Notes: generated by a model from the sequence alone, not told the origin. A stretch of DNA of 64,000 nt from Geobacteraceae bacterium (GCA_013336525.1 JAAXTM010000008.1:37459-101458); one strand, 5' to 3'; counted from the first letter of the stretch, positions 45,641-62,505 are shown. Translations and numbers: made by a program.

Positions 45641-46158
45641 AGTTTACCTACTCCCAAGGTCAGCTGCACGGAGAGTAGTTGGCCCGCGCCGCTGGTGACA
45701 TTTCCTTCAATTATGAACAGGCGCCCGAATGATTTTATCACCTTGGCTGAAATAGTCAGGATGTCTCCAGCAACTGCCGGAGCTGAAAATTCGGCGTGAT
45801 CGATGGCCGCAATAAAACCGCCTTCCACCTCCGCCTGAGCGACAACAATACCGGCTAACTGGGCAACGGATTCGATCATGAAAATCTGGGGAAAACCATG
45901 GTTGCCGGTCACACCGGTTACGGCAACCGCTTGTGCGCCCTGTACCAGTGTAGTAATCCGGTCAAGAAACAGAAAGGGGTAACGGTGGGGCAGATAGTGT
46001 GCCGGATCGGGATTAAACAGGGTCGCCTCCGTTGAACCGGATGGCGAAGTAGGGCCCCTCTGGTGAGGCGGCCAGATGCAGACCGGTCTGGCCAGGCTGA
46101 AGCAAGGCCAGCAATGCCGCCATGGAAGTGCCTCCCATGGCCAGCGAGCTGCCGGCAA
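45637..46158 (-). CDS. FabA/FabZ-like 3-hydroxyacyl-ACP dehydratase (hotdog fold)
   Basis: LPHRYPFLFLDRI...GNHGFPQIFMIESVAQLAG. The only in-frame ATG/GTG/TTG upstream of the conserved core is the TTG at 46158, which overlaps the upstream gene by 146 nt. The true start is uncertain. Confidence 0.75.
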   Translation of the reverse strand: MPAARWPWEALPWRHCWPCFSLARPVCIWPPHQRGPTSPSGSTEATLFNPDPAHYLPHRYPFLFLDRITTLVQGAQAVAVTGVTGNHGFPQIFMIESVAQLAGIVVAQAEVEGGFIAAIDHAEFSAPAVAGDILTISAKVIKSFGRLFIIEGNVTSGAGQLLSVQLTLGVGKL

Positions 46159-48258: not shown

Positions 48259-48998
48259 CAGACGATTCCGCCGTCAACTATCAGTGATTGGCCGGTGATA
48301 TAGGAAGCACGCTCAGAGCCCAGGAATAATGCCGCTTCGGCAACTTCTTCCGGGGTGCCGAGGCGACCCAGAGACGAACTCTTTACGATTCTTTCTACGA
48401 TGTCCTGCTTCAGACCCACCGTCATGTCGGTGCTGATAAGGCCGGCAACCAGGGCGTTAACCCTGATTCCCATCGGCCCCAACTCACGGGAAAGCGATTT
48501 GGTGAAGCTGATTGCAGCCCCTTTGGAGGCGGCGTAGTTGGTCTGGCCGGCAGTCCCGGTAAGGGCGGAAACGGAGGAAATATTGATAATGGAGCCGCTG
48601 CGGCGTGCCAGCATCTTGCGCACCCCCCACTTGCAGCAGTGAAAGAGAGGATTCAGGTTGGTACGGATCACACTGTCCCAGTCATCTTCGGCCATCATGG
48701 CCAGAAAACCGTCCTTCACGATCCCGGCGTTGTTGACAAGTACATCGATATGCCCGGCAGACAGCGAGGCGGAGTTGATGACGCTTTGTGCTCCATTTGA
48801 TGTGCTGACATCGCCCTTGATAACAACGATAGAACCTGGCAGGTCGGCAGAATCAGCAACAAGAGAGGAGGCTGTCTCATCATTGCTCAGGTAAGCGGCA
48901 AAAACCTGCGCGCCATGGCGGGCAAAAGCCAGGGATATGGCTCGTCCGATACCGCGGGTACCACCGGTGACAACTACAATTTTATCTCTGAATTCCAT
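48258..48998 (-). CDS. 3-oxoacyl-ACP reductase (SDR, FabG-like)
   Basis: 246 aa; TGGTRGIGRAI, NNAG, and the NYAASKGA YxxxK motif. Confidence 0.9.
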   Translation of the reverse strand: MEFRDKIVVVTGGTRGIGRAISLAFARHGAQVFAAYLSNDETASSLVADSADLPGSIVVIKGDVSTSNGAQSVINSASLSAGHIDVLVNNAGIVKDGFLAMMAEDDWDSVIRTNLNPLFHCCKWGVRKMLARRSGSIINISSVSALTGTAGQTNYAASKGAAISFTKSLSRELGPMGIRVNALVAGLISTDMTVGLKQDIVERIVKSSSLGRLGTPEEVAEAALFLGSERASYITGQSLIVDGGIV

Positions 48999-49080: not shown

Positions 49081-50460
49081 TTATATCGGGCGTACGCGGC
49101 TCCTGCCCAGCCGTTTCATTAACCGCCAAAGCGGTCCCTTGACCGGAAACATACGCAGAGCATCCAGCATGGCAGAGCTGACATTGACCTCAAGGCTCGG
49201 CACAATCCAGGTGCGCCGCTTGAGCGCCTGTTCTGTAACCAGATCGCAGAGCCCATCCCTGATTGCCGGCGAGATGTAGAATACCGGTTCCAACAGGCAA
49301 TCTCCCTTGGCAATAATGCCGTCCCTCAGGGCGATCTGCTCCATGGCGGTGCCTGGGTAGATCCGAATCCCGGTCATCGTGATGACTGCGGTCGGTTCAA
49401 CCTCATCCATCAGAGTGAACGTTTCCAGCACGGTTTCCCGCGTTTCACCCGGGCCGCCGAAAAGGATGTAATGGGCAAAGTCCATCCCCATTTCATGGCA
49501 GAGGCGTGATGATTCACGAATAGAGTCAACGGTGAAAGACTTGCCGAGATTTTTTAGCATTTGTGGCGAGCCGGAGTCACTGCCGTATTCAACCGCGTCA
49601 CACCCAGCCTCCTGCATAGCTTGCAGCAGTCGAGGCGTGATGAAGTCAGGGTTGATGAAGGCCGACCAGTTGACCGGCAGCCGCTCAGCAGAAATTGCCC
49701 GGCAGAGCTCTTCGGCAAAATCCGTGGGGTAGTTGAAGATGTCATCGACGAAATAGAGGTAGCTGACACCATAATCGTCCACAAGGGTGCGAATCTCGGC
49801 GATTATCTCAGCAATCGGGCGCAGGCGCATACAGCGCCCCTCCAGCAGCGGATAGGTGCAGTAGATGCACCCGAATGGGCAGCCACGCTTGGTCTGAAGA
49901 TTGGCCATCCCCCCTTCCCGGTAATAGCGGGCAACATCAAAGAGAGTACGATCAGGAGAGCCGATGGCTTCGACCGGCAGCGGCGGGATGAAATCTTCTC
50001 TTCCCGGCAGAACTACACCGGGGATCAGGGCCGCATCACCGCCCGACTCCAAACACTCGAACAGGCGCGGCAGTACTGCTTCCCCTTCCGCTGCCACGCC
50101 GTAATGAGCGCCTACAGCAGCCAAAATTTTCACCGGCATCAGCGAAAAACCGGAGCCGCCGATTATAGTCACGGCTTTGGGATGGCATATGGCAACGATA
50201 TCGCGCACACCATCAATATAGCTGCGGCTTCCCGGCCAGGTAACGTTATCAAGGTTGCGGAGGGAGATGACAACTGCATCGGGTTGATGCTCCGTAAGTG
50301 CCGAGGAGACAGCCAGTTGGGGGTCGGTTTCGAAACAGAGGTCGAGAGCGTTCAAAAGGTGCCCTGCCGCCGTCAGCGGTCCGGCCAGAAAGGCCAGTCC
50401 GATCGGGAAGACAGGGTATGGATCGCGCTCACGGTTGGCGGAGATCAGCAGAATCTTCAT
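49081..50460 (-). CDS. B12-binding-domain radical SAM protein (class B), copy 1
   Basis: 459 aa with an N-terminal Rossmann-like B12-binding region (MKILLISAN...) and the cluster motif CPFGCIYC. From memory it resembles the family NCBI labels 'lipid biosynthesis B12-binding/radical SAM protein'. Confidence 0.85.
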   Translation of the reverse strand: MKILLISANRERDPYPVFPIGLAFLAGPLTAAGHLLNALDLCFETDPQLAVSSALTEHQPDAVVISLRNLDNVTWPGSRSYIDGVRDIVAICHPKAVTIIGGSGFSLMPVKILAAVGAHYGVAAEGEAVLPRLFECLESGGDAALIPGVVLPGREDFIPPLPVEAIGSPDRTLFDVARYYREGGMANLQTKRGCPFGCIYCTYPLLEGRCMRLRPIAEIIAEIRTLVDDYGVSYLYFVDDIFNYPTDFAEELCRAISAERLPVNWSAFINPDFITPRLLQAMQEAGCDAVEYGSDSGSPQMLKNLGKSFTVDSIRESSRLCHEMGMDFAHYILFGGPGETRETVLETFTLMDEVEPTAVITMTGIRIYPGTAMEQIALRDGIIAKGDCLLEPVFYISPAIRDGLCDLVTEQALKRRTWIVPSLEVNVSSAMLDALRMFPVKGPLWRLMKRLGRSRVRPI

Positions 50461-50879
50461 GGCAGCTCCAACGCAGCTAATAAACGGTTTACCCGCTCAG
50501 CGATCAGGGGGGGGAGTTGAAACTGAAGTACGCCATCCAGATCGGTCAATGCGTGGGTTGTCGAACCGGTGGCATACTTTTTACCGTCAGAGCCGACTAT
50601 GGTGGTGATAAATTCGAGAGTGGCTGTCTCGGTCCGGCGCAGGGTTGTCCGGATCGTCAGCTCTTCGTTAAAACGGGCCGGCCGCAGAAACTTCAGTTCA
50701 AGAGCTACCACCGGTCCCAGATATCCGACTGTCGCCAACTGGAAAGCATCCAGGTCGAACTCCCCGGCCAGGGCGTTGCGGCCGATCTCCATCCAGGCCA
50801 CGTAATGGCCGTGCCAGGCGACACGGTAGGCATCAATTTCGTTGAAGCGGACTGCTATTTTCGTTTCGTGGAATTTCAT
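50457..50879 (-). CDS. 4HBT/YbgC-type acyl thioesterase (hotdog)
   Basis: 140 aa; VRFNEIDAYRVAWHGHYVAWMEIGR carries the catalytic Asp context of 4HBT thioesterases. Confidence 0.8.
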   Translation of the reverse strand: MKFHETKIAVRFNEIDAYRVAWHGHYVAWMEIGRNALAGEFDLDAFQLATVGYLGPVVALELKFLRPARFNEELTIRTTLRRTETATLEFITTIVGSDGKKYATGSTTHALTDLDGVLQFQLPPLIAERVNRLLAALELP

Positions 50880-51712
50880 ATCTCACTATCTATCCAGCGA
50901 TTGAATTTTGAGAGCGCCTTACCGGCACCCACCTCCTGAAACTGTGTCACCCCCCGCGAGCGGAGGGTGCGGTAGGTGGTATCCCAATAAACCGGTCGAC
51001 AGAGTTCATCAACCAGAAACGCAGGGATAGTCGCAGCTGTCAGGACCGTCTGGCCGATATGTTCTACCAGAGGGATTAGAGGCTCGCAAAAGCTGTACCC
51101 GGCCACGATCTGCTCTATTCCCTCGGTTATCTCTGCAATCAGCGGCGTGTGAAGCGGGGCGTCACAGGGGAAGCCCGCAGCCGAAAAGGCACCTGATGCC
51201 TTGGCTTCAGCCAGAGCCGCATCTATATTTTTTCGTTCGCCGGCCAGTAGAAAATGGTGAGAAGTATTATAGTTGGCGATGTGAACTGTGTTATTGGCAG
51301 CTATCTCTTCCAGTGGAGAGCAGCTCATTCCGATGACACACCCCAGCGCATATTCACGCTGCATCCCCCTCTTCGCCATAGCCACGCCGATCCGGTACGT
51401 CAGTTCAAGGGCCGTCGCACTGTCTATCGAGCCGGATGCAGCCAGTGCAGGATAGATCCCCATGCTGTGCTCGGCAATCAGGTCCGGTACCTTTCCCTCT
51501 ATTGTCAGCTGGCTGGAACGATGCAGGCTTATACAGGTGCCTAGCAGCTGAAGCCGCACACTCTGGCTTATATCTGAATCCGATATGTCGTTTTCAAGTG
51601 GATTACAGCCGGTTGATTCCTGGCAGACCCGGATGATTTTCTGGAATTCGATATCATCTGATGGCACACCGGTAAAGGTTATCGGCTGGCCTGGAAACAT
51701 CCAGCAGATCAC
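50876..51712 (-). CDS. FabD-like acyltransferase (malonyl-CoA:ACP transacylase family)
   Basis: 278 aa. It has FPGQ at the N-terminus and nucleophile motif EHSMG (in place of GHSxG), with an Arg 24 residues downstream and APLHTPL (His) retained. Confidence 0.8.
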   Translation of the reverse strand: MICWMFPGQPITFTGVPSDDIEFQKIIRVCQESTGCNPLENDISDSDISQSVRLQLLGTCISLHRSSQLTIEGKVPDLIAEHSMGIYPALAASGSIDSATALELTYRIGVAMAKRGMQREYALGCVIGMSCSPLEEIAANNTVHIANYNTSHHFLLAGERKNIDAALAEAKASGAFSAAGFPCDAPLHTPLIAEITEGIEQIVAGYSFCEPLIPLVEHIGQTVLTAATIPAFLVDELCRPVYWDTTYRTLRSRGVTQFQEVGAGKALSKFNRWIDSEI

Positions 51713-52995
51713 GCTTCACTCCTCTTGCGCCTGATGGCGGCACGGAAACCGATGTTCATCGGTCCGAAGACCTGTACGGAACGGTGCAGTTTAAAGATAC
51801 GGCGATACATGGAAGGAAAAGAATAAAAGGAGCGGTTAAGCCAGTCGTACCCTTCCTGAAGCTGCTGAACTGTCATCCCTTTTGGCTGGAAGTTGATGTG
51901 CTCCATGTCATAGTCGCGCCAATTGCTGGAGATGATCCGGCCTTCCGCTTCGAGACGGCGGCGGACGGCGGTGCCGGGATATGGGGTCAACAGCGGGAAA
52001 ATGGCCGCTTCAAGACGTGCCTCTTCACAGAAACGGAGCAGTTTCGGGAAGATTTCAGGTGTGTCTCCGTCATAACCGAGTACAAAGGAGCCGAGGATGC
52101 CGATGCCGTTATCACGAAAGGCCCGGGCATCTGCCATGAATGACTGCGCCCGGTTGGTAACCTTCCCCATGGCGGCCAGTGATTCCTGATTAAGCGATTC
52201 GAAGCCGACGAACATCCCCAGGCAGCCGGACTCACCGGCGGCACGCATCAACTCGCGGTCACCCGCAAAATCTATCGGCGCGTGGGAGAGCCATTTGAAG
52301 CCCATCCCCTTCATCCCCTGGAAGAGCGGCAGAGAATACTTGCGGTCAGCCACGAGGTTGTCGTCTACAAAAAAGACGAATGAGTTGGATTTTCGTAACT
52401 CCTGCAACTCGGTCAACACCTGTTCTACCGGGCGTTTCCTGTAATTACGCCCATAAAAGGCGGTGACAGAGCAAAATTCACAGTCAAAGGGACAGCCGCG
52501 TGTGGTCTGGATGGTGTTGGAGAGCAGATACCCCTTTCCCTTGAAAATATCGCGGCGGGCAACCGGAATGTCGGCCATGCTGATCATCGATTCAGGCTTA
52601 TAGAAACGCTGAAGCCTCCCCTGTGAAAAATCGGCGAGCAGTCCCGGCCAGACGACCTCTCCCTCTCCCACCACTACCGCATCAACGTGATTGAGCGCTT
52701 CATCCGGCAGATTGCTGGCGTGAAAGCCGCCCATGACCACGGTTTTACCACGGTTTTTGAAGCCGGCAGCAATCTCATAGGCACGGGGTGCCTGCGGAGT
52801 CATGGCGGTCAGGGCTATCAGGTCGGCATCCGTGTCGTAGTCGATCCGTTCTGAATGGTCGTCGCAGAGTGCTACGTCCCATTCCATGGGGGTGACAGCG
52901 GCAATAGCAGCCAGTGAAAGCGAAGGGAACCTGAAGGCCAGTTCCCCCCATAATCTCCCCTTGGGCCAACCGGGGGAGATCAGCAGTACTTTCAT
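51709..52995 (-). CDS. B12-binding-domain radical SAM protein (class B), copy 2
   Basis: 428 aa; N-terminal MKVLLISPG... Rossmann-like domain and cluster motif CPFDCEFC. Confidence 0.85.
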   Translation of the reverse strand: MKVLLISPGWPKGRLWGELAFRFPSLSLAAIAAVTPMEWDVALCDDHSERIDYDTDADLIALTAMTPQAPRAYEIAAGFKNRGKTVVMGGFHASNLPDEALNHVDAVVVGEGEVVWPGLLADFSQGRLQRFYKPESMISMADIPVARRDIFKGKGYLLSNTIQTTRGCPFDCEFCSVTAFYGRNYRKRPVEQVLTELQELRKSNSFVFFVDDNLVADRKYSLPLFQGMKGMGFKWLSHAPIDFAGDRELMRAAGESGCLGMFVGFESLNQESLAAMGKVTNRAQSFMADARAFRDNGIGILGSFVLGYDGDTPEIFPKLLRFCEEARLEAAIFPLLTPYPGTAVRRRLEAEGRIISSNWRDYDMEHINFQPKGMTVQQLQEGYDWLNRSFYSFPSMYRRIFKLHRSVQVFGPMNIGFRAAIRRKRSEA

Positions 52996-53249
52996 TTGCG
53001 GTTTTCCGCAATATATGCGGCCATGCTGCGGACCGAGGCAAAGACTGTGCTGCCGGTGGCAGCGTCGGGAACAACTACGCCGAATTCCTTCTCCATAGCC
53101 ACCACCAGCTGCAGTGCATCAATGGAGTCCAGCCCCAATCCTTCGCCGAACAGCTGGGCATCGGTATCGATTTCGTCAGGAGACATCCCCTCGATGCGGA
53201 GACTGTCAATAATCATCTGTTTCACTTTTGGTATTAACTCGTCACTCAT
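52992..53249 (-). CDS. acyl carrier protein
   Basis: 85 aa; the phosphopantetheine site is LGLDSIDALQL. Confidence 0.9.
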   Translation of the reverse strand: MSDELIPKVKQMIIDSLRIEGMSPDEIDTDAQLFGEGLGLDSIDALQLVVAMEKEFGVVVPDAATGSTVFASVRSMAAYIAENRK

Positions 53250-53293
53250 TCATAGTCCCTTTTATCTTTCCTGTTATTCTTTAACTGCATTTT

Positions 53294-54214
53294 TTATTGT
53301 GGCCTTGCTTTTTCAGACTCGTTGCTTTTTTCAAAAAAATCATAAAAATTGTACCACTGGTCCGGATATTGCCGGATATAGCGTTCGAAAACGGCTGCCA
53401 GGCGCTGCATGCCGCTCCGTATGGCCTCTTTGTGCTGGCCATGTCCGCCGCTGAAGTAGATAGCTTCATCCATAAGCGTCGAATATTTCCCGTTTTCCAG
53501 CGGAACAAAGACCGGAATAACCGGCGCTCCACTGGCAAGAGCCAGATAACCGGGGCCAACCGGTATCTCCGTTTGATGTCCGAAAAAATCCAGTCTTATT
53601 GTGTGGGAAGATCCGTCGCGCTCGCCCAAGAGGGCCAGTACCTCGTTCCGCCGCAGGGCGTTGACCGCTTCGATGATCGCCAGTGGTGACGTGTCGTTAC
53701 GATCCACATAGATAAAATTAACGCCGCGCTCACCCCTTACTGATTCGCGCATTTCGTTTACCTTTTCATCCGGCTCGCGAAAGGTCATTACGTTAACGGT
53801 ATACCCAAGATCGGCCAAACCCAATCCACCCAGTTCCCAATTGCCAAGATGGGGCGAGACCAGGATAGCACCGGTACCAGCCGCCAATGCCATCTCCAGC
53901 GGTTCTCCACTGCTGCGTTTACCGATCATGGCCTGGAGCTTTTCCCCCTTTAGTCGCATCATCAGCATTACATCGCACCAGTTTTGCCCGAATGTACGGA
54001 AGGTGGAAAAGACTAGCGCTTCGACATCGTCACTGCCGGTTACAATTCTCAGGTTCGAGCGCACGGCACGTCGTTTGTCTCCCAGCAGCAGGTAGAAAAG
54101 CCCGCCCCAGAAAAGTGTGAACGGTGGAAACAGCCAGCGTGGCACCAGAATGGTAAAAAGATTTATAAAGAACAGATTGATGTTGCTGTAGAGATTCAAA
54201 AAAACAGCTCCCAT
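53294..54214 (-). CDS. LpxL/HtrB-family (lysophospholipid/lipid A type) acyltransferase
   Basis: 306 aa with an N-terminal TM. SPHLGNWELGG is the H(x4)E/D acyltransferase motif of the LpxL/HtrB family. Confidence 0.8.
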   Translation of the reverse strand: MGAVFLNLYSNINLFFINLFTILVPRWLFPPFTLFWGGLFYLLLGDKRRAVRSNLRIVTGSDDVEALVFSTFRTFGQNWCDVMLMMRLKGEKLQAMIGKRSSGEPLEMALAAGTGAILVSPHLGNWELGGLGLADLGYTVNVMTFREPDEKVNEMRESVRGERGVNFIYVDRNDTSPLAIIEAVNALRRNEVLALLGERDGSSHTIRLDFFGHQTEIPVGPGYLALASGAPVIPVFVPLENGKYSTLMDEAIYFSGGHGQHKEAIRSGMQRLAAVFERYIRQYPDQWYNFYDFFEKSNESEKARPQ

Positions 54215-55551
54215 GCACAGAGTGCCAGCTTCCTGAAGGAGAGATTCCCTCTGCCTGCGGCCTGCTTGAAACCTTGGGTCGCTTCCTGTGAACGACGGTA
54301 GAATTTTACAAAAGCCTTGATAAGCAAAAATTGCAGATAATGACGATTTATCAACGGGTGCCGGAAGACGATGTGCAGGCCGTCATAAAACTTCCAGCGC
54401 CGGCAGAAGATGCGGTCCTTGATCTGCTCATAGAGCCTGGTGCCGGGATAGGGGGTCAGGATGGAAAACTGGGCAATGTTGGTATTGAGCCTGACCGCAA
54501 GGTCAATAGTCTTTTCTACGTCAGCGGCGCTCTCATTCAGGTTGCCGATGATGTAGCTGCCGTATGATTCGACTCCGTTTTCCCTCAAAATCTCCACCGC
54601 ACGGGTAACATCGCTTGCCTTGATGTTCTTGCCGAGCGAGTTCAGTGTTTCCTCATTGCCGCTTTCAATGCCGAGGTAGACTGTTGTGGAACCTGCGGCA
54701 GCCATTTTGGCTACCATGGCCGGATTTTTTACGATGGTGTCGACCCGTGAGAGGTTCCACCATTTCAGATCATAGCCGCGCTCGATGATCCCGTCGGCAA
54801 TCTGCTCGACGCGCGGCGGCGCAAGGGTGAAATTGTCATCCATGAAGCAGATGGCCCGGAACCCATAACGGTTATAAACTTCATCGATCTCAGCCAGCAC
54901 CGATTCGGCGCTACGGTAGCGCCACCCTCTGCCGAAAAAACTCGAAGATGAACAGAAATGACAGGCGCCGGGGCAGCCGCGACTGGTAACAACCGGGGTT
55001 ATGGAACGGTCGGCCATGCTGGCCCGGTAGCGATGGAGATCTACCAGATGCCGGGCCGGAAAGGGGAGGGCTTCAACGTCAATCGGGTCGGCGGCGGGTG
55101 TCTCAATCAGGTGACGACCATCCTTGATGATCAATCCTTTTACCGCTTCAGCACTGTCACTGTTCTGGAGCGCGGTCAGGAGATTGCGAAATACAATCTC
55201 TCCCTCACCTTTGACGATATAATCAACACAACCTGCGGCAAATATATCCTCCGCCATGAATTGCGGATGGGGGCCCCCCATAACTACCGGCCTGCCGGTA
55301 ACAGCGACTCTGCGGGCTATGGCAAGCGCCTTGCCCGCTCTGGTTGTGTCTGCCGAAATCCCTACAACGTCGGCCCGGTGGATATCAGCATCATCCAGTC
55401 GCTCACCTTCGGCCGCCAGATCCTTTACAACCACGTCGTGACCGCCCTGTTCAAGGCTGGCGGCAACGTAGAGCAGGCCGATGGGGGGGAGGCTCAGGCC
55501 AAACGTATTAAATACGCTCAGGGATGGTGGATTTACCAGCAGTACCTTCAT
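54196..55551 (-). CDS. B12-binding-domain radical SAM protein (class B), copy 3
   Basis: 451 aa; MKVLLVNPP... Rossmann-like domain and cluster motif CPGACHFC. Confidence 0.85.
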   Translation of the reverse strand: MKVLLVNPPSLSVFNTFGLSLPPIGLLYVAASLEQGGHDVVVKDLAAEGERLDDADIHRADVVGISADTTRAGKALAIARRVAVTGRPVVMGGPHPQFMAEDIFAAGCVDYIVKGEGEIVFRNLLTALQNSDSAEAVKGLIIKDGRHLIETPAADPIDVEALPFPARHLVDLHRYRASMADRSITPVVTSRGCPGACHFCSSSSFFGRGWRYRSAESVLAEIDEVYNRYGFRAICFMDDNFTLAPPRVEQIADGIIERGYDLKWWNLSRVDTIVKNPAMVAKMAAAGSTTVYLGIESGNEETLNSLGKNIKASDVTRAVEILRENGVESYGSYIIGNLNESAADVEKTIDLAVRLNTNIAQFSILTPYPGTRLYEQIKDRIFCRRWKFYDGLHIVFRHPLINRHYLQFLLIKAFVKFYRRSQEATQGFKQAAGRGNLSFRKLALCAWELFF

Positions 55552-56928
55552 TTATTTGCTTCCGGTTTTCATGGTCTTTACCGGAGGCTCCTTGAACTCA
55601 TCTTCCCAGATCGGATCAGCGATCTCTGCATAGGAACGGGAGTAGTTATCCATCTGGTCCGCCAGGCCGGTGAAAATTTCATCTGCACCTTCATGGGTCG
55701 GATAGGCACCTTCAGAGGCGAAAAGTTCCCGACCGGCTGCCGGTTGATCAATCAGCATGCAGGGGCGCAACAGGTTGTCATGCTCACCCTGTTTCTGGCG
55801 GATTTTAGTGAAAAACGGAGATGAAAGCGCCTCGTGGATAGTTGAACGGCGGATATTATCAACGGCAAAATGACAGAAGACACACGGCTCGATGTCGCCG
55901 TTGGCATTGATATGGAAATATTTGCGCCCTCCGGCCAGGCAGCCGGAGATCATCGGCCCGTCATTCCAGAAGTCAATAAACAGCATCGGCTTTTCGGCGC
56001 GATAGTCGATAACGGTCCGACGCAGTTCATCTCGCTGTTCGGGGGTCGGCATCAGTTCAGGTTCAGGCTTGCGTCCAACCGGAACATAGGAAAATAGCCA
56101 CATGGCAAAGACGCCCTTCTTCAGCAGCATGTCGATGTAGTCGCCATTGGTGATGATGTCGGAATTTTTGCGGGAATGAGTGAATGAGCCGCAGAAGGAA
56201 AGTCCCCCCTCTTTCATCAGGTCCATGGCGTGCATAACCTTTTTAAAATGCCCGGCACCGCGGCGTTCGTCGGTTTCCTGCTCGTACCCCTCAAGCGAAA
56301 AGGAGGGCATGACATTGCCGACGTCAGTCAACTTTTCAACCATCTTTTCATCGATCAGACCACCATGGGTAAAGACCAGAAAAGCCATGTCGCTATGTTT
56401 TTTGAAGATTTCGAAAATGCCTTCCATATAAAACGGCTCACCGCCGGAGATAACTGCGAAATAAACACCCATCTCTTTCATCTGGGTCAGGATGGAATCG
56501 ACTTCATCCAGCGAAAGTTCCAGCGATTTGTCATAGTCGCCGGCATAGCAGCCGTAACAGCTGAGGTTGCAACGCATGGTAGGACTGATAACCACGGTTG
56601 AAGGTGGATAATAGCCGTACTTGTCACTCCACTCCTTGCGTTTGTTGGTACCGTTCAGCAGGTGATTGACGAGCAGATTGCTGATCCATTTGTCACGCTG
56701 ATTGGGGTGCAGATCGCGGAGAATCCTGCGGGGGAATTCAATGCTCGGATGTTTATCCCGCACCAGACCACGAATCCAGCGGATGCGATCCTTGTAATAG
56801 TCCTTCTTGGGAATCATCTCCATCAGATGGGTCATGCGGATCAGCGATTCATCTGATGAATTTGTCGCCAGCGACAGGAGATATGTAAGGATCTTTTCTT
56901 TTGTGTAATTTTTCAGAGTGTTGATCAT
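55552..56928 (-). CDS. radical SAM protein with C-terminal SPASM/twitch-like Cys region (no B12 domain)
   Basis: 458 aa with an ~110-aa N-terminal extension, cluster motif CNLSCYGC, and the later GCLAGGRKYFHINANGDIEPCVFCHF, typical of auxiliary-cluster domains. Confidence 0.8.
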   Translation of the reverse strand: MINTLKNYTKEKILTYLLSLATNSSDESLIRMTHLMEMIPKKDYYKDRIRWIRGLVRDKHPSIEFPRRILRDLHPNQRDKWISNLLVNHLLNGTNKRKEWSDKYGYYPPSTVVISPTMRCNLSCYGCYAGDYDKSLELSLDEVDSILTQMKEMGVYFAVISGGEPFYMEGIFEIFKKHSDMAFLVFTHGGLIDEKMVEKLTDVGNVMPSFSLEGYEQETDERRGAGHFKKVMHAMDLMKEGGLSFCGSFTHSRKNSDIITNGDYIDMLLKKGVFAMWLFSYVPVGRKPEPELMPTPEQRDELRRTVIDYRAEKPMLFIDFWNDGPMISGCLAGGRKYFHINANGDIEPCVFCHFAVDNIRRSTIHEALSSPFFTKIRQKQGEHDNLLRPCMLIDQPAAGRELFASEGAYPTHEGADEIFTGLADQMDNYSRSYAEIADPIWEDEFKEPPVKTMKTGSK

Positions 56929-56943
56929 TCGACATATGCCTCG

Positions 56944-57606
56944 TTACATGTAGCGTAAAAATGTCATGCTTATATTGACTGTATCTTTGACCGGGCGATA
57001 ATGGCTGGTTGCGCGGCCATCGGCAACCCGTGCTGCAATCGGAAGGGAGCCAACCGTGAAACCTCTCTTCCATGCCTTCAATAAAATTTCCATCTCCAGT
57101 GCGTATCCATTTGACTTCAATGACACATCCTTCAATACGTTACGAGAATAAAACCTGAAACCGGACTGACTGTCCGTAATCTCAAAACCTGTACGTTTCC
57201 AGATACACCAGACACCGATACGGTTCCATAATTTACGGAGACCGGACATCAGTTCGAACTGGGCGTGACGGGACGCTATCAGAATGCCCCAGCCGCCGTT
57301 CTGTGCAGAAGAGACCAGCTGCGGGATAGCTGAAACATCATGCTGGCCGTCGGCATCAATTGTTACTACCGCGTCGAAAGCGGATTCAATCGCCCAGGCA
57401 AAACCGGTTTTCAGCGCAGCTCCCTTGCCAAGATTTTGCCGGTGGCGGAGCAGTGTCACCGGTAATCCGGCTAATAAATCGGACAGGTCAGTTGCCGAGC
57501 CATCATCAACCACCACCACCGGCATGCCATGCTCCAGGCACTCTTGAACCACCGGCAGAATTGTGATGTCGGCGTTATATGCAGGAATCAGGATACAGGT
57601 TGCCAC
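56944..57606 (-). CDS. family 2 glycosyltransferase (short, polyprenyl-phosphate/lipid type)
   Basis: 220 aa; ILIPAYNA...VVVVDDGSATD...TIDADGQHD gives the GT-A DxD. Confidence 0.85.
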   Translation of the reverse strand: MATCILIPAYNADITILPVVQECLEHGMPVVVVDDGSATDLSDLLAGLPVTLLRHRQNLGKGAALKTGFAWAIESAFDAVVTIDADGQHDVSAIPQLVSSAQNGGWGILIASRHAQFELMSGLRKLWNRIGVWCIWKRTGFEITDSQSGFRFYSRNVLKDVSLKSNGYALEMEILLKAWKRGFTVGSLPIAARVADGRATSHYRPVKDTVNISMTFLRYM

Positions 57607-58427
57607 TCGTACACCAGCTCCTTTAGAGTTTTAAATCGATAACGCCGGCACAGTTCATTCAAACGGGGAGTCGCGTCCATTCTGGTTCCATAAGATACAA
57701 ACCGTTTCAAAAGCGGCAGGTCAAGCCTTGGTCCTTCAGGGTCCACCTCGCGCGGGTGAAGATACAGTACCGCCGGGTGATGTTTGCGGTTAAGCGATTC
57801 AATTGTCGCAAGTATGGTCCTGAAAGGGAAAAGCCTGAATCCCCATCCACCACCGGTTGGCAGGTTTCCTGTCAAAGACTTTGTCACCATCGGCGGGATT
57901 TCCCACAGCCCTGTTCCTTCGCCCTCAAGGCGGTATGGGACGCGGCTGCCGTTGGAATCACCTATAAAGGGGAGCGGATTTAGGCTCGAATCATATAGAT
58001 ACCCACGTTCTCGCAGGATAGCAAAGGGCCACCCGGTTTGCTCTGATAAAGACCATTGCGGAGCCCTGTAACCGACAGGGCGCTGTCCGGTCTGCTCCAT
58101 CAGTATCCGCTCGGTGAGTTGCAGCTCGTCACTAAACTGTTGCGGCGTCAGGTCCGGCACCAGACTGTGTGAATAACCGTGTGAGGCTATTTCATGCCCC
58201 GCTGAGCAGATCATGGTTGCTAAATCAGGATCATTTTCGGCCACGGAACCGAGTATGAAAAAAGTGCCTTTTTGACCATGTTCGTCAAGTAAAACAAGGA
58301 TCCTCTTCAGGTTGCTGCGAACCCGCCATGCCTCGCGTGGTGGAACAGGAATAACCCTCCCGGAGCCACAGACATGGTACCAATCCTCGACATCTATTGT
58401 TATAGCATTGTACGTCAGTAAAGGCAC
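57588..58427 (-). CDS. polysaccharide deacetylase family protein (NodB-like, DUF3473-type)
   Basis: 279 aa; ITIDVEDWYHV...GHEIASHGYSH are metal-binding motifs of CE4 deacetylases. It overlaps the GT2 gene by 19 nt. Confidence 0.8.
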   Translation of the reverse strand: MPLLTYNAITIDVEDWYHVCGSGRVIPVPPREAWRVRSNLKRILVLLDEHGQKGTFFILGSVAENDPDLATMICSAGHEIASHGYSHSLVPDLTPQQFSDELQLTERILMEQTGQRPVGYRAPQWSLSEQTGWPFAILRERGYLYDSSLNPLPFIGDSNGSRVPYRLEGEGTGLWEIPPMVTKSLTGNLPTGGGWGFRLFPFRTILATIESLNRKHHPAVLYLHPREVDPEGPRLDLPLLKRFVSYGTRMDATPRLNELCRRYRFKTLKELVYEWQPVS

Positions 58428-58497
58428 TCCGATACGCGTCGATAAAAGTTATAATAATTACATTACAAGTGATATCAAGTCAATATACCTGTCCCTG

Positions 58498-59457
58498 CTA
58501 AAGCATGCTCCTGATTTTTGTTCTTACGGCTTCTGCCACATCCCTGGTAACAAGTTTTCTGTCCGTTAGCGATTTAAGATAAAAGGGGACAACACAGCCG
58601 CAGCGGTGGCAATCGGCCTTGGGGCCAAGCATGCAGGGCTCTTTCATGACTCCGTCCGGTCCAAGAGCAAATGATTTTTCAGCAAAGGGGCATTTGTCAG
58701 TGACCGTTCGCGCTCTGTCGGATTTCATCAGTCTTAGCGTGCGTGTTGTGTTGACGATAAAATCTCCGTACAACGATTTCATTTCAATCAGAAATTCGAG
58801 AATTTGATCTTTTCCTTCCCATTCAAGCCACAGCGAATCGTCAACTCCCCTGACAGGGGTAAAAAAGCTGAACACAATGTTTCTGACTTTCGGGTTACTG
58901 CTCCACTCCTCCAGAGATGCGGAAATTTCAGTAACGTTCTCACTGGTAATGCAGTAGGCTATGGTGATTTTCAGTCCTTCGGTTGCGTCTATGTTCTGCC
59001 TGATCGTATCGAAAAGACCAGGCTTGTTGCGCATTTTGTCATGACTCTCCCTTCCCCCGTCAACCGAAATGTACCAGCTCACATCTTTCCAGTCGGGGAG
59101 CGGCAGGGAGCCGTTAGTCGTCACCGTATTGTATTTGAAATAGCGCCTACCCAATTCGATGAGCGGCAGACGCAGGAGAGGTTCTCCACCGACCCATGTA
59201 CACTGGAAGGAACGAAACCCCTCCGCCTTCATGTTCTCGAATTTTTCTCTCCACTGATCAAGCGACCACTCGGAAGAGTGTTCCTGTTCGAAAAAATAGC
59301 AATGATCGCAGCGCAGGTTACACCGATTGGTAACATCAACCGATCCGAAGCTGTTTTTAGGGATGCCGAAGAGGAAGAAACCGAGTTGAGCAAGATTGTA
59401 GGTGGAGAAGAGTGGTTTTGGATGTCTTGGTGCGGAAGTATGCTGCTGATTATTCAT
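58498..59457 (-). CDS. radical SAM protein, HpnH/DUF3463-like architecture
   Basis: 319 aa; cluster motif CNLRCDHC and a C-terminal Cys-rich tail CPFAEKS...CMLGPKADCHRCGCVVPFY. The resemblance to adenosylhopane-synthase-type rSAMs is from memory and needs an HMM check. Confidence 0.75.
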   Translation of the reverse strand: MNNQQHTSAPRHPKPLFSTYNLAQLGFFLFGIPKNSFGSVDVTNRCNLRCDHCYFFEQEHSSEWSLDQWREKFENMKAEGFRSFQCTWVGGEPLLRLPLIELGRRYFKYNTVTTNGSLPLPDWKDVSWYISVDGGRESHDKMRNKPGLFDTIRQNIDATEGLKITIAYCITSENVTEISASLEEWSSNPKVRNIVFSFFTPVRGVDDSLWLEWEGKDQILEFLIEMKSLYGDFIVNTTRTLRLMKSDRARTVTDKCPFAEKSFALGPDGVMKEPCMLGPKADCHRCGCVVPFYLKSLTDRKLVTRDVAEAVRTKIRSML

Positions 59458-59484
59458 GAAGCTTCACCCTATTATGAATTAAAC

Positions 59485-59525
59485 ACAGAAAGAACCCACG
59501 GCTCCAAGCCATGGGCTCTTTCTGT
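59485..59525 (-). terminator. 14-bp stem-loop between the lipoprotein gene and the first operon gene (terminator or attenuator)
   Basis: ACAGAAAGAACCCA / TGGGCTCTTTCTGT with one mismatch and a 13-nt loop. On the minus strand it is followed by GTGTTTAATTC and ends 28 nt before the rSAM start codon. Confidence 0.4.
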
Positions 59526-59591
59526 ATGACTTGCTGTTATAGTTCCGCTGCTCCGCTTCAAAGCATGCCAGTTCAGGTGCTGCTTTGCGTT

Positions 59592-60110
59592 TTAAGGGTG
59601 TTCTTTTTTATAATCAGTAACAATATTATTGAATTTATCTTCTTTAAGATCAGGTACATTCGCGGACGGATCCAGTTCGTAGTATTGACATTTGCCATCC
59701 ATTTCATCGTACATTTTTTTACTTTCATCGATATCATATTTTGTCCGGGCTGACAGCACACCCATTCTGATCTCCTGACGGAGATAATAAGTTTTGTCCG
59801 GTTCGAAGTTAAGTAATACTGCGTCAAAATTTTCTGCATCTGCGATGATAAAGTGCTGACCTGGATCTACAGTGCTTACAAAGAAACCCTTACCCCTAGT
59901 TGTACCAATAAACTTCCGGTCTACATAGTTATCGATATTGACGGCGCCACCAAAGAATGTGGTGCGCCCAATAACCAATGCAGACTTACCGGCAGGCGGC
60001 TTGATCTCGCGCAGGTCTGGACAGACATCTTTGGCGATCATCCGACTTGGACTGCATCCGCCTGACAAAAGCAGGGAACAAACACCAATCAGTAAAAAAA
60101 ATCTCTTCAT
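59592..60110 (-). CDS. lipoprotein of unknown function (DUF2846-like)
   Basis: 172 aa with lipobox LLLSGGC. The family guess is from memory only. Confidence 0.6.
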   Translation of the reverse strand: MKRFFLLIGVCSLLLSGGCSPSRMIAKDVCPDLREIKPPAGKSALVIGRTTFFGGAVNIDNYVDRKFIGTTRGKGFFVSTVDPGQHFIIADAENFDAVLLNFEPDKTYYLRQEIRMGVLSARTKYDIDESKKMYDEMDGKCQYYELDPSANVPDLKEDKFNNIVTDYKKEHP

Positions 60111-60332
60111 ACACCCTCCACTTAAATTTACCCAGAGCCTGTAGCACTGGAAGTGTTGAATAGCTACGGTATCAATTTTGAGTTTGACTTAACAAATTGG
60201 CCTTGTCAAACAATTTAGATCCAAATTCGACATACGCACCTGCTTTTCCGGCGACTCTGTGCTATAGATGAAAAAGAGCCCTCTGGAGGGCTAATATGAA
60301 ACCGGGATAACATTTCCAAGCGGAGTATAAGA

Positions 60333-61754
60333 GTGAAAATAGTCCTCCTGCACCCCTACGGCAGCAACTGGCTTAGTGGCATGAAAGATATCAGCACGGT
60401 ATTCAATCTGATGCCGCCGCTAGGTATTATGAGTATGGCAGCTGTTTTGGAGCGGGCGGGCATAGACGTCGAAATTATCGATTGCTACGCAACGCCTATG
60501 CCCCTTGCTGATCTGGTAGAAGAAATTATCCGCCGCGGCCCGGACTGTCTGGGCGTCTCTACCACGACATCTTCATTCAATGAAGGATATCGTGTCGCTG
60601 CAGCTGTAAAGGAAAAAGCGCCGCAGATATTCACCCTGTTCGGTGGAGCCCATGCCTGTACTATTGGCGCACAGCTACTTGATTCATTTCCCGCCATAGA
60701 TTATCTGGCTATCGGCGAAGGCGAAAACACAGTGCTGGAACTGGCCCAAGCAGGTTTCAAAGGGATTGAACAGCTTCCCGGCGTTGCATATAGGGATTCA
60801 AGCGGCGCGGGCGTCACTTCAGCGCCCCGTGAACTAATCAAGGATCTTGACGATCTCCCTTTTCCCGCATACCACAAACTGCCTCAATTTCCCAAACGCT
60901 ATAATCTACCACTCTTCAGTTATCCAACTGCTCCCAATACAAGCATCATCTCCAGTCGCGGCTGCCCTTATTCCTGCTCATACTGCGACCGCTCAGTGTT
61001 CAGCCGCGGCTTCAGATTTAACTCGCCTGAATATATCGTTGAGCATATGGCAATGCTTAACCGCGATTTCGGCATCCGCCATGTGTTCTTTTATGATGAT
61101 CTGTTTACCTTTGACCGCAAAAGGGTGGCAGAGTTCTGTGCCATAAAGGAACGTAAGGGATTGAAGGTTACCTATAATTGTATCGCCAGACTGGAACATG
61201 TGGATTCTGAATTGCTGGCGCTCCTTAAACGCTCCGGTTGCTGGCAGGTCAATTTCGGTATCGAGTCAGGAGATCCGGAAATATTAAAACAGCATCGCAA
61301 GTTCTTCGGGCTGGATGAGGTTGGACGTAAACTGCAAATGGTGAAGGATGCAGGCATGAGGGTTAAGGGGCTTTTTATGGTCGGCCTGCCGGGCGAGAAT
61401 GAGGCCGCTATTCGCCGCACCATCGATTATGCCCTATCACTGCCGCTGGACGAGATCAATGTTACCAAGTTCACCCCGTTTCCAGGGGCACCTGTCTACG
61501 GCACAATAAGAGAACAGGGTGAATTTAATGAGAGTTGGGATTTGATGAACTGCATGAATTTCGTCTTTGTGCCTCACGGTATGACCAAACAACAGCTGGA
61601 AGATCTCTATAACGAGTTCATTTACCGCTTCTACCACCGCCACCGCATCACCTGGGGGTACACTAAAATGCTCTGGAAATCGCCACACAGTATTTTGACG
61701 TTTATGCGGAACCTGCCGGAGATACTGGCTTTTGAGATGAAGCAGAAGTGGTAA
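60333..61754 (+). CDS. B12-binding-domain radical SAM protein (class B), copy 4
   Basis: 473 aa with a GTG start; MKIVLLHPYG... Rossmann-like domain and cluster motif CPYSCSYC. Confidence 0.85.
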   Translation: MKIVLLHPYGSNWLSGMKDISTVFNLMPPLGIMSMAAVLERAGIDVEIIDCYATPMPLADLVEEIIRRGPDCLGVSTTTSSFNEGYRVAAAVKEKAPQIFTLFGGAHACTIGAQLLDSFPAIDYLAIGEGENTVLELAQAGFKGIEQLPGVAYRDSSGAGVTSAPRELIKDLDDLPFPAYHKLPQFPKRYNLPLFSYPTAPNTSIISSRGCPYSCSYCDRSVFSRGFRFNSPEYIVEHMAMLNRDFGIRHVFFYDDLFTFDRKRVAEFCAIKERKGLKVTYNCIARLEHVDSELLALLKRSGCWQVNFGIESGDPEILKQHRKFFGLDEVGRKLQMVKDAGMRVKGLFMVGLPGENEAAIRRTIDYALSLPLDEINVTKFTPFPGAPVYGTIREQGEFNESWDLMNCMNFVFVPHGMTKQQLEDLYNEFIYRFYHRHRITWGYTKMLWKSPHSILTFMRNLPEILAFEMKQKW

Positions 61755-61772
61755 CATACAGGAAACGGTGAC

Positions 61773-62363
61773 ATGATACACTTCAAGGCATCCATAACTT
61801 TAGTACTGTTGTCCATACTTTCCCAGACAACGCCTGTTTCAGCTGGCAATCCGGTTTCTGGTATGAAGGGAGAATACGGAGGCCTCACCGGTTACGGCAT
61901 AACCCATAAATATTTTGGAGCAACCCGCACCCAGGTACAGACCTGGGATGCCATCCTCCGATTCGGCCGGTTTCTGTCTGACGATGTTGGCAAGGGGAGC
62001 TGGTATCAAGGAAGACATGAGTTGCTGATGGAGTTGCCGTATCATATGGCGGTGGATCATGGTGGCAGATCAATGGTGGGTGGGTATCTGTCCGGAAGCT
62101 GGAAGTTCACATCCCTGGAGAATGCAGCACCCTATGTTTTTGCTGGAGGTGGTCCCCTGTATGTGGATCTGGGACTCCCGACCATGGGAACTAAACTCTG
62201 CTACAGTTATCAGGCTGGAACCGGGCTGCAGTACTTTATTGACAGGAAGACCGCACTGAATGTGGAGTACCGATATCATCACATATCTAATGCAGGCACA
62301 GCTGAACCTAATGAACCGCTTAATTCCAGCAAAATCCTGTTTGGGATGTCATTTTTCTATTGA
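61773..62363 (+). CDS. acyloxyacyl hydrolase / PagL-like outer-membrane lipid deacylase
   Basis: 196 aa with a signal peptide and beta-barrel-like alternating pattern ending in F-Y. YRYHHISNAG matches the His-x-Ser-Asn catalytic motif of the PagL family. Confidence 0.75.
   Translation: MIHFKASITLVLLSILSQTTPVSAGNPVSGMKGEYGGLTGYGITHKYFGATRTQVQTWDAILRFGRFLSDDVGKGSWYQGRHELLMELPYHMAVDHGGRSMVGGYLSGSWKFTSLENAAPYVFAGGGPLYVDLGLPTMGTKLCYSYQAGTGLQYFIDRKTALNVEYRYHHISNAGTAEPNEPLNSSKILFGMSFFY

Positions 62364-62428: not shown

Positions 62429-62505
<77 letters not shown>

Follow-up and report, generated by a model that had tools for sequence, protein, structure and literature searches.

Four B12-type radical SAM genes as probable tailoring genes of a ladderane-type, aryl-polyene-like cluster in a Geobacteraceae genome

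Gene clusters proposed for ladderane synthesis were described in Kuenenia, with similar clusters in Desulfotalea, Geobacter, and Pelobacter, and Table 2 of the same study lists a FabF paralogue of G. sulfurreducens (NP_951518) with Phe163 at the position of the active-site Cys (Rattray 2009, PMC2649909). "Ladderane" biosynthetic gene cluster (BGC) calls in non-anammox phyla have been reported as being of unknown function (PMC9902471), and a 2026 review places the "Ladderane" enzyme among the B12 radical S-adenosylmethionine (SAM) enzymes with unknown transformations (PMC12931638). The anammox enzymes have proved hard to express, and a genetic system is lacking for anammox bacteria (PMC10139942). 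We analyzed a stretch of 64,000 nucleotides of a Geobacteraceae metagenome-assembled genome (GCA_013336525.1, JAAXTM010000008.1:37459-101458; hereafter the window, in whose numbering positions are given) that carries four B12-type radical SAM genes, here named B12a, B12b, B12c, and B12d. Our results suggest that these four genes probably encode tailoring enzymes of one chromosomal cluster resembling type II fatty acid synthase (FAS) or polyketide synthase (PKS) systems, which belongs to the TIGR04072 or "ladderane-type" family and follows the plan of aryl-polyene (APE) clusters. TIGR04072, which marks the clusters of the 2009 study, is the NCBIfam "lipid biosynthesis B12-binding/radical SAM protein", with the short name rSAM_ladder_B12. 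Because such clusters have already been catalogued through TIGR04072, the 2009 study, and the BGC calls, the kind of cluster is already a known one.

The four genes are as follows, with bit scores for Pfam B12-binding (PF02310, gathering cutoff 32.1) and Pfam Radical_SAM (PF04055, cutoff 29.5), in this order.

49081-50460, minus strand: B12a, TIGR04072 protein, TsrM/BzaD-like, 459 aa (43.8; 75.5)
51709-52995, minus strand: B12b, B12-binding radical SAM protein with a DUF4070 tail, 428 aa (43.3; 53.0)
54196-55551, minus strand: B12c, accessory, distantly BchE/HpnR-like, 451 aa (81.5; 80.1)
60333-61754, plus strand, GTG start: B12d, distantly HpnJ/BchE-like, divergent, 473 aa (80.3; 93.4)

An earlier reading, made from the sequence alone, had placed four paralogous enzymes of class B architecture at these positions. 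The open reading frames (ORFs) are present there, and the profile searches bear out the architecture, since all four proteins exceed the gathering cutoff of PF02310 as well as that of PF04055. A CxxxCxxC motif lies inside the radical SAM domain in 4 of 4, and the quoted forms CPFGCIYC, CPFDCEFC, CPGACHFC, and CPYSCSYC can all be read in the translations, as can the shared N-termini, which are given as MK(I/V)(L/V)L. A four-way alignment also revealed GG and GEGE motifs common to the four proteins. The ORF lengths agree with those of orthologues (459-460 aa for B12a, 428 aa for B12b, 451 aa for B12c, and 472-473 aa for B12d). The B12a protein has a 100% identical match in a Geobacteraceae metagenome-assembled genome. 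Pairwise identities among the four proteins were 23-29%, which indicates that the genes are deep, ancient paralogues of one superfamily and rules out a recent duplication.

B12a scored 376 bits against TIGR04072, which only narrowly exceeds the curated cutoff (360 bits), with model positions 1-440 of 443 covered; distant TIGR04072 members and fusion proteins score 406-430 bits. The cutoff was not reached by B12b (73.9 bits), B12c (112.1 bits), or B12d (108.5 bits), all of which pass no named NCBIfam equivalog. Membership of the lipid biosynthesis family, against which the sequence-only reading had wished to compare the paralogues, thus holds for B12a and not for the other three. The profile of the B12a family aligned end to end, over both domains, with TsrM (6wte; 220 bits, E 4e-64). 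Moreover, a fold search with the AlphaFold (AF2) model of B12a (pLDDT 80, pTM 0.83) returned TsrM first (E 1e-27, TM 0.79), followed by AprD4, MgmA, OxsB, CysS, and TokK. The runner-up for B12a in NCBIfam was BzaD (205 bits); BzaD is a predicted and TsrM a known Csp2 methylase (PMC12931638). B12a shares both domains, the fold, and an Arg at the lower cobalamin face with TsrM (tryptophan C2-methyltransferase), but it lies far under the TsrM and BzaD cutoffs (133 of 500 and 205 of 450 bits, respectively), and the substrate of those enzymes is an aromatic amino acid or base, whereas the context of B12a points to acyl-ACP (ACP, acyl carrier protein) or lipid.

Two residues relate B12a to the mechanism of TsrM. 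Arg68 of B12a is invariant in 42 family members, and the profile alignment pairs it with Arg69 of TsrM, which blocks the lower face of cobalamin and favors cob(I)alamin chemistry (PMC13331322, PMC8992657). Where TsrM reads "DSEFN", the family reads "DDIFN", and Glu273 of TsrM pairs with Ile241 of B12a. Glu273 ligates the unique iron and thereby stops SAM binding to the cluster and radical SAM cleavage (PMC8992657). Because Ile occupies this position, B12a is expected to bind SAM in the usual way and to carry out radical chemistry, and we do not file B12a as a nonradical methylase of the TsrM type. This combination of a TsrM-like Arg under the cobalt with no SAM-blocking Glu is a new observation. 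At the position of Arg68, the four-way alignment gave Arg, Met, Asp, and Thr for B12a, B12b, B12c, and B12d, respectively, which is compatible with four distinct chemistries. The TsrM-like fold of the model and the conserved Arg indirectly support cobalamin binding by B12a. Its likeness to TsrM and BzaD suggests that B12a may methylate an sp2 carbon or an adjacent one, or make a new C-C bond there, which would suit an enoyl or polyene intermediate.

Natural fusions of TIGR04072 proteins point to the substrate. Three kinds of fusion were found among the family representatives, with TIGR04072 scores of 409-430 bits. P0220 joins an N-terminal LpxL-type acyltransferase, 32% identical to the acyltransferase of the window (E 7e-25), to TIGR04072, and P0252 carries an N-terminal radical SAM/SPASM domain. 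In P0221 (599 aa) and P0512 (609 aa), TIGR04072 is followed by a C-terminal hot-dog dehydratase. The hot-dog domain of P0221 is homologous to the dehydratase (DH) of the window (E 3e-10), and the two have a PHRxPxxxxD motif in common; the domain showed no similarity to the thioesterase (TE) of the window and is not homologous to it. P0221, P0511, and P0512 form one 90%-identity cluster drawn from three datasets, and P0511 (529 aa) is named only a hot-dog dehydratase by its source. These fusions appear to place the TIGR04072 enzyme beside a dehydratase and an acyl-transfer step, and they are the best support for an ACP-tethered substrate. The fusions to dehydratase, acyltransferase, and radical SAM/SPASM domains are a new contribution and, together with the Arg/Glu feature, narrow where and when the enzyme would act.

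We scanned for the B12a family with a 12-sequence profile, using one genome per species, and mapped 20 proteins of the window onto 83 related loci (L numbers below). B12a matched 1,342 clusters at 50% identity (E<=1e-30), and the scan gave at least 583 matching stretches. The hosts of the family number more than 580 sequenced species and include cultured Geobacter, Trichlorobacter, Oryzomonas, and Geomonas. The best 80 loci came from Geobacteraceae, other Desulfuromonadales, Syntrophaceae, Syntrophobacterales, Syntrophorhabdus, Desulfobacterales, and Holophagales/Thermoanaerobaculia, and no anammox genome was among them. The same gene set recurs in Geobacter sp. AOG2, GCA_942493195, and dozens of species genomes. 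In Geobacteraceae, it usually consists of the deacetylase, a family 2 glycosyltransferase (GT2), the radical SAM/SPASM protein, the acyltransferase, ACP, B12b, the FabD-like protein, TE, B12a, FabG, the ketosynthase (KS), a chain-length-factor-like KS paralogue (CLF), DH, the LolA-like and LolB-like proteins, and MMPL. The best kept proteins are the radical SAM/SPASM protein (72-94% identity), ACP (73-95%), and B12b (69-94%). Together, the synteny across dozens of genomes and the fusions back the earlier suggestion of an ACP-bound or lipid-bound acyl chain, and no orthologue turned up whose known substrate is something other than a lipid.

The sequence-only reading had regarded four such enzymes in one pathway as unusual, which does not hold within the cluster family. 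Counting within 10 kb of B12a, the 31 loci with a FAS core had two B12 radical SAM genes in 13 cases, three in 7, four in 10, and five in 1. These counts indicate that four genes are a common state of a variable tailoring set. Other Geobacter species have alternative accessory B12 radical SAM types, one about 40% identical to B12b and another about 27% identical to B12c. That the chain is heavily modified, as the earlier reading had it, is a reasonable inference only. Outside this setting, Holophagales/Thermoanaerobaculia carry the B12b-B12a pair with no FAS genes within 10 kb. In seven such loci (L040, L043, L044, L048, L052, L054, and L063), the B12b (65-67% identity) and B12a (53-57%) orthologues adjoin each other, and the neighbors of one Thermoanaerobaculia pair are a Ser/Thr kinase, proteins with ThiS- or DUF4097-type matches, and unknowns. 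That the pair is so similar to the Geobacteraceae proteins in other phyla suggests that it spread horizontally or that it works independently of the cluster.

The cluster extends from 41766 to 62363 (approximately 20.6 kb) and is chromosomal. Besides the four genes listed above, the region contains the following features.

41539-41615, minus strand: tRNA-Met (CAT)
41766-44294, minus strand: MMPL/RND-type exporter, ApeM/HpnN-like, 842 aa (Pfam MMPL 119.5 bits)
44300-45001, minus strand: LolB-like lipoprotein, ApeN counterpart, 233 aa (Pfam LolB 30.6 bits)
45017-45640, minus strand: LolA-like periplasmic carrier, ApeL counterpart, 207 aa (Pfam LolA 38.1 bits)
45637-46158, minus strand: DH, FabZ/ApeP-like 3-hydroxyacyl-ACP dehydratase (NCBIfam FabZ 60.4 bits, under cutoff)
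46013-47056, minus strand: CLF, lacking the catalytic triad, 347 aa (only the ketoacyl-synt N-domain detected)
47053-48258, minus strand: KS, FabF-like, 401 aa (TIGR03150 fabF 389 bits against a cutoff of 494)
48258-48998, minus strand: FabG-type 3-oxoacyl-ACP reductase, 246 aa (TIGR01830 266 bits)
50457-50879, minus strand: TE, 4HBT/YbgC-type thioesterase, ApeK counterpart, 140 aa (Pfam 4HBT_2 40.5 bits, 4HBT 38.9 bits)
50876-51712, minus strand: FabD/MdcH-like malonyl transacylase, 278 aa (MdcH 118.7 bits, FabD 107.4 bits, both under cutoff)
52992-53249, minus strand: dedicated ACP, ApeE-like, 85 aa (NF006617 72.7 bits against a cutoff of 70)
53294-54214, minus strand: LpxL/PatA-family lipid acyltransferase, ApeD counterpart, 306 aa (Pfam Lip_A_acyltrans 103.6 bits)
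55552-56928, minus strand: radical SAM/SPASM protein, core member, 458 aa (Radical_SAM 69.4 bits, SPASM 30.9 bits)
56944-57606, minus strand: GT2, polyprenyl-phosphate-sugar-synthase-like, 220 aa (Pfam Glycos_transf_2 64.9 bits)
57588-58427, minus strand: polysaccharide deacetylase with DUF3473, 279 aa (Polysacc_deac_1 72.3 bits, DUF3473 110.6 bits)
58498-59457, minus strand: second radical SAM protein without a B12 domain, accessory, 319 aa (Pfam Radical_SAM 54.2 bits)
59484-59526, minus strand: terminator-like hairpin, 20-bp stem with 9 G-C pairs
59592-60110, minus strand: DUF2846 lipoprotein, 172 aa (Pfam DUF2846 33.2 bits, just under cutoff)
61773-62363, plus strand: PagL-like outer-membrane lipid deacylase, partner of B12d, 196 aa (Pfam PagL 74.9 bits)
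62429-62505, minus strand: tRNA-Met (CAT)

On the minus strand, the order of transcription is the 319-aa radical SAM gene, deacetylase, GT2, radical SAM/SPASM, B12c, acyltransferase, ACP, B12b, and FabD-like, followed by TE, B12a, FabG, KS, CLF, DH, LolA-like, LolB-like, and MMPL. Overlaps of 4 nt join B12a to TE, TE to FabD-like, FabD-like to B12b, and B12b to ACP; the acyltransferase and B12c genes overlap by 19 nt, and the gap between B12c and the next gene is 0 nt. The coupling of three B12 genes to the TE, FabD-like, ACP, and acyltransferase genes, claimed before, was therefore found as exact overlaps of 4 and 19 nt. With the proteins encoded at 55552-56928 and 58498-59457, which have no B12 domain and had been overlooked, the radical SAM genes number six; the export half of the cluster and its lower extent to 41766 had likewise been overlooked. 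The 319-aa radical SAM protein was found in L005, L007, L041, and L052 only.

The assignments draw on further profile matches. KS has an intact Cys-His-His triad, and its top match in the Protein Data Bank (PDB) was B. subtilis FabF (4ls5, 305 bits), closer than the PKS KS chain of 6smo (188 bits), which we take to be the Xenorhabdus APE KS/CLF complex. In CLF, alignment with KS showed the changes Cys to Phe, His to Ser, and His to Ser; since all three catalytic residues are lost, this KS paralogue is regarded as a chain-length-factor-like subunit. DH as called has 173 aa, a TTG start, and a 146-nt overlap with the CLF gene, whereas its orthologues have 126-136 aa, which indicates that the true start probably lies downstream of 46158, near 46020; the Geobacter sp. 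AOG2 orthologue gave a weak Pfam ApeP-like match. Under their cutoffs were the matches of the MMPL protein to NCBIfam HpnN (178.6 bits), of the LolA-like protein to the flexirubin LolA2 family (42.3 bits), of the FabD-like protein to Pfam Acyl_transf_1 (26.8 bits), of the acyltransferase to the NCBIfam PIM acyltransferase (118.8 bits), and of GT2 to PpgS (88.6 bits), AglJ (83.1 bits), and an ArnC-type family (34.8 bits). The deacetylase scored 222.6 bits against TIGR03006 (cutoff 276), and the FabG-type protein matched the flexirubin FlxB SDR family with 220.7 bits. MMPL is kept at the cluster end in related loci, and the LolB-like gene is syntenic in L004, L012, and L018. The N-terminus of the DUF2846 protein is signal-peptide/lipobox-like in translation; the hairpin between its gene and the first radical SAM gene implies a separate transcription unit, and its membership of the cluster is uncertain.

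The flanks consist of housekeeping genes, with HisG and one tRNA-Met on one side and the other tRNA-Met, a SPOR protein, and ArgS on the opposite side. The two tRNA-Met genes bracket the cluster almost exactly, and 121-bp stretches that include their flanks align at a mean column identity of 75%. A genomic island bounded by a duplicated tRNA-Met was ruled out, as the tRNAs are different genes and the flanks are housekeeping. An Rfam scan of the window matched only these two tRNAs and gave no cobalamin riboswitch. The G+C content is 0.47-0.51 over positions 56000-62000 (GT2, deacetylase, 319-aa radical SAM, DUF2846, B12d, and PagL) versus 0.53-0.59 in the FAS/export part, a contrast that may reflect a mosaic origin of the cluster. 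Some related loci contain insertions of unrelated genes that leave the flanking cluster genes intact: a seven-gene insertion in Geobacter sp. AOG2 (L002, 11468-17254), and MazE/PIN, HigB/HTH, and HipA toxin-antitoxin modules that interrupt the cluster in GCA_942493195 (L003, 6869-9418 and 11478-12958). A flavodoxin/FMN_red-type gene lies inside or beside the cluster in L002 (12330-12947) and L003 (3946-4563), and none is present in the cluster of the window; its product is a plausible reductant for the radical SAM/cobalamin enzymes.

Comparison with APE clusters accounts for much of the gene content. The top PDB match of the ACP was 9LS6 (E 2.7e-15, versus approximately 1e-7 for FAS ACPs), which is ApeE of the Acinetobacter APE cluster (PMC12624758). 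Against the E. coli APE gene table (PMC8253772, Table 1), 11 cluster genes have counterparts: ApeC (CLF), ApeD (acyltransferase), ApeE (ACP), ApeJ (glycosyltransferase), ApeK (thioesterase), ApeL (LolA-like), ApeM (RND/MMPL), ApeN (LolB-like), ApeO (KS), ApeP (DH), and ApeQ (ketoreductase). No counterpart was assigned to ApeH (acyl-ACP synthetase for the aryl starter), ApeB (SAM methyltransferase), ApeG, or ApeR, and neither an AMP-binding ligase nor a class I SAM methyltransferase was detected among the 22 genes scanned. The cluster also differs from APE clusters in having a single ACP, and it has in addition the FabD-like transacylase, the deacetylase, the six radical SAM genes, and PagL. 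Because ApeH and ApeB are missing, the cluster is APE-like in plan and is not an APE cluster. The shared logic is an unsaturated chain on a dedicated ACP, a lipid anchor, and outer-membrane export.

The anammox clusters resemble the present cluster in another way. Anammox Cluster I (kuste3603-3608) likewise combines a dedicated ACP, a FabZ-like DH, an active and a triad-less KS, and a radical SAM gene, and CLF of the window has the same Phe at the Cys position as G. sulfurreducens NP_951518. A polysaccharide-deacetylase-like gene is also present in the anammox locus (Kuste3351; PMC2649909). In contrast to Cluster I, the cluster of the window has many more radical SAM genes (six, of which four encode B12 domains), a complete anchoring and export module of APE type, and a non-anammox host, and its 22 genes include neither a phytoene-dehydrogenase-like gene, as found in Cluster I, nor one of amine-oxidase type. 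Furthermore, ACP is nearest ApeE, and KS and DH are nearest ordinary FabF and FabZ. In Rhizobiales, the AcpXL/LpxXL system for the very-long-chain fatty acid of lipid A groups its own ACP with a FabZ paralogue, two FabF paralogues, and an LpxL-family acyltransferase, and it is not known to include radical SAM genes or a module for MMPL/LolA/LolB export; the likeness of the present cluster to it is at the domain level only.

The remaining three B12 proteins are less readily placed. The model of B12b (pLDDT 70) gave AprD4 as its best fold match (E 7e-19) and also matched the cobalamin-dependent MgmA, TsrM, and CysS. AprD4 has a Rossmann-like domain that binds no cobalamin (PMC12931638), which makes cobalamin use by B12b ambiguous. 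The cobalamin type assigned to all four proteins by the sequence-only reading is thus upheld by the B12-binding profile in 4 of 4 and, for B12a, by the TsrM-like fold of the AlphaFold model; for B12b, cobalamin binding is left in doubt by the AprD4 match. B12b adjoins B12a even in Acidobacteriota; it is missing or replaced by a B12b-like paralogue of approximately 40% identity in L029 and L037 and is absent in Syntrophobacteraceae (L075/L080). B12c is confined to some related loci (59-88% identity). The hopanoid and bacteriochlorophyll enzymes BchE, HpnR, and HpnJ are the top named families for B12c and B12d (194, 147, and 195 bits, respectively) and have the same two-domain architecture. However, both proteins lie far under the curated cutoffs of these families (481-650 bits), e.g., B12c with 193.6 bits for BchE (cutoff 481) and B12d with 195.4 bits for HpnJ (cutoff 578), and the cluster has no hopanoid or chlorophyll genes, unlike the setting of HpnP/HpnR/HpnJ and BchE.

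B12d is divergent, lies outside the operon, and pairs with the PagL-like gene rather than with the ACP and acyltransferase genes. Its listed homologues are 73-93% identical, and the named ones are of Geobacter/Desulfuromonadales type. The B12d-PagL pair recurs near the cluster in L084 (Geobacter sp. AOG2) and L085. It is upstream and divergent in the window, past the MMPL end and convergent in Geobacter sp. AOG2, and a few kb from the MMPL end in GCA_009684525. That the pair stays within approximately 10 kb of the cluster in three gene orders speaks for a functional connection. In Geobacter sp. AOG2 (L084, 11521-14974), VTT/DedA, BrkB, and DUF748/AsmA-like genes separate B12d-PagL from the MMPL end, and these envelope-lipid families hint at a wider outer-membrane lipid locus.

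In the pathway that we propose, the FabD-like transacylase would load malonate onto the dedicated ApeE-like ACP, and KS/CLF, FabG, and the FabZ/ApeP-like DH would elongate the chain iteratively. No enoyl reductase was detected among the 22 cluster genes scanned with Pfam and NCBIfam, so that enoyl or polyene intermediates would persist. B12a, B12b, and the radical SAM/SPASM protein would modify the ACP-bound chain, and B12c and B12d (the latter with PagL) would contribute lineage-specific accessory changes. The likeliest chemistry would be C-methylation by way of cobalamin or the joining of carbons by radicals to form C-C bonds, in either case at sp2 carbons or directly beside them. TE and the LpxL/PatA-like acyltransferase would then shift the chain onto a glycolipid acceptor made by GT2 and the deacetylase, MMPL with the LolA-like and LolB-like proteins would carry the product to the outer membrane, and PagL may remodel it. 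A more specific version, which we put forward tentatively and hold to be possible but less than probable, is that the TIGR04072 enzymes and their partner radical SAM proteins perform C-C chemistry, based on cobalamin or radicals, on enoyl- or polyenoyl-ACP during elongation, in physical association with DH, and that Geobacteraceae and many other anaerobes thereby form an undescribed class of multiply branched or cyclized outer-membrane lipids with a glycolipid anchor.

Several observations weigh against a role of the four genes in tailoring an ACP-bound chain in one APE-like cluster. B12a only just clears the TIGR04072 cutoff, cobalamin binding is inferred for all four proteins, and the nearest fold of B12b, in a model of moderate quality, is the cobalamin-free AprD4, which leaves its cofactor ambiguous. 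Of the three fusion types, two form single-member clusters of metagenomic origin and could stem from faulty gene calls. The occurrence of the B12b-B12a pair without FAS genes indicates that an ACP-bound substrate is not obligatory for it. KS, CLF, and DH showed no special affinity to APE or anammox structures, as ordinary FabF and FabZ scored as well or better; by this comparison, KS and DH appear no nearer to the APE and anammox proteins than to FabF/FabZ. The chain could still become saturated if a housekeeping FabI acted in trans. Finally, the literature searched contained no known product of any non-anammox member and no functional study of a Geobacter-type cluster.

Some of these observations would also fit a division of labor, in which not all four proteins are cobalamin enzymes or belong to one pathway: B12b, and perhaps others of the four, would use the Rossmann-like domain in the cobalamin-free manner of AprD4 (PMC12931638), the best fold match of B12b, and B12d would act with PagL, BrkB, and DedA on another envelope substrate and be no more than a neighbor of the cluster. 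The opposite strand of B12d, the strong terminator-like hairpin between the lipoprotein gene and the operon, the position of B12d beside VTT/DedA, BrkB, and PagL at the opposite cluster end in Geobacter sp. AOG2, and the differing lower-face residues are all consistent with such a division. We nevertheless regard it as a minority possibility, albeit a real one, since 4 of 4 proteins exceed the Pfam B12-binding threshold and share the GG and GEGE motifs, B12b also matches cobalamin-dependent enzymes, and B12d-PagL stays close to the cluster in three gene orders. Remodeling of lipid A or a related glycolipid, in the manner of AcpXL/LpxXL, is unlikely. In that reading, the dedicated ACP, the FabZ, and two FabF paralogues would produce a special secondary chain, which the LpxL-family enzyme would transfer to lipid A; the radical SAM enzymes would change it at mid-chain in oxygen-independent reactions, and PagL would take off a primary chain. 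The acyltransferase belongs to the Lip_A_acyltrans family (103.6 bits), a PagL-like deacylase is paired with B12d, and the AcpXL cluster has the same set of ACP, DH, KS, and inactive KS. Geobacter lipopolysaccharide is reported to carry unusual hydroxy fatty acids. GT2 and the deacetylase resemble ArnC/ArnD-type modification of lipid-linked sugars (the ArnC-type match is weak, E 8.6e-9), an AsmA/DUF748 gene stands at the cluster end in Geobacter sp. AOG2, and the APE literature raises lipid A as a possible anchor (PMC8253772). However, the best NCBIfam match of the acyltransferase is the PIM acyltransferase PatA and not LpxL/LpxXL, all of these being under cutoff, and lipid A, which uses MsbA and Lpt, has no need of a dedicated MMPL/LolA/LolB route.

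An anaerobic route to polyunsaturated fatty acids (PUFAs) or hydrocarbons with radical SAM enzymes as desaturases, a role suggested by Rattray et al. for those of Kuenenia and Desulfotalea, would agree with the missing enoyl reductase, which favors unsaturated products, and with the polyunsaturated hydrocarbons of D. psychrophila (PMC2649909). We consider this route very unlikely here: the acyltransferase, GT2, LolA/B-like proteins, and MMPL point to an anchored envelope lipid and not to a free PUFA or hydrocarbon, the nearest characterized relatives of B12a are methylases and not desaturases, and heterologous expression of anammox genes gave no polyunsaturated fatty acids (PMC10139942). That the cluster yields polycyclobutane lipids such as ladderanes, the product suggested for its anammox homologues, is extremely improbable. 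The rSAM_ladder_B12 membership of B12a, the similar Geobacter clusters of Rattray 2009 (PMC2649909), and the parallel of KS, inactive KS, ACP, and FabZ-like DH with anammox Cluster I (PMC10139942; bioRxiv 10.64898/2026.05.19.726425) speak for it. Yet no source of ladderanes other than anammox Planctomycetota is known (PMC9902471), Desulfotalea psychrophila contained none in spite of its syntenic cluster (PMC2649909), and no phytoene-dehydrogenase-like gene occurs among the 22 genes, and it is for these three reasons that ladderane synthesis appears unlikely. In addition, ACP, KS, and DH are not specifically anammox-like, and the link between cluster and ladderanes is unproven even in anammox bacteria (PMC10139942).

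If the four genes tailor the chain of an APE-like cluster as proposed, the value of the locus would lie in a widespread family of radical-SAM-tailored fatty-acyl or polyketide envelope lipids more than in the presence of four B12 enzymes. Its cultivable hosts could open chemistry that is inaccessible in anammox bacteria (PMC10139942, PMC13459092). Should the action on enoyl- or polyenoyl-ACP be correct, tractable Geobacter would become a model for the unsolved ladderane-type chemistry, and the reaction would be the first demonstrated case, apart from Jaw5, in which a radical SAM enzyme modifies a membrane lipid of ketoacyl (non-isoprenoid) type. Solving the product would bring to light a new envelope lipid in metal reducers that matter in the environment, establish which reactions a large orphan group of cobalamin radical SAM enzymes carries out, and offer an experimental handle on ladderane-type biosynthesis.

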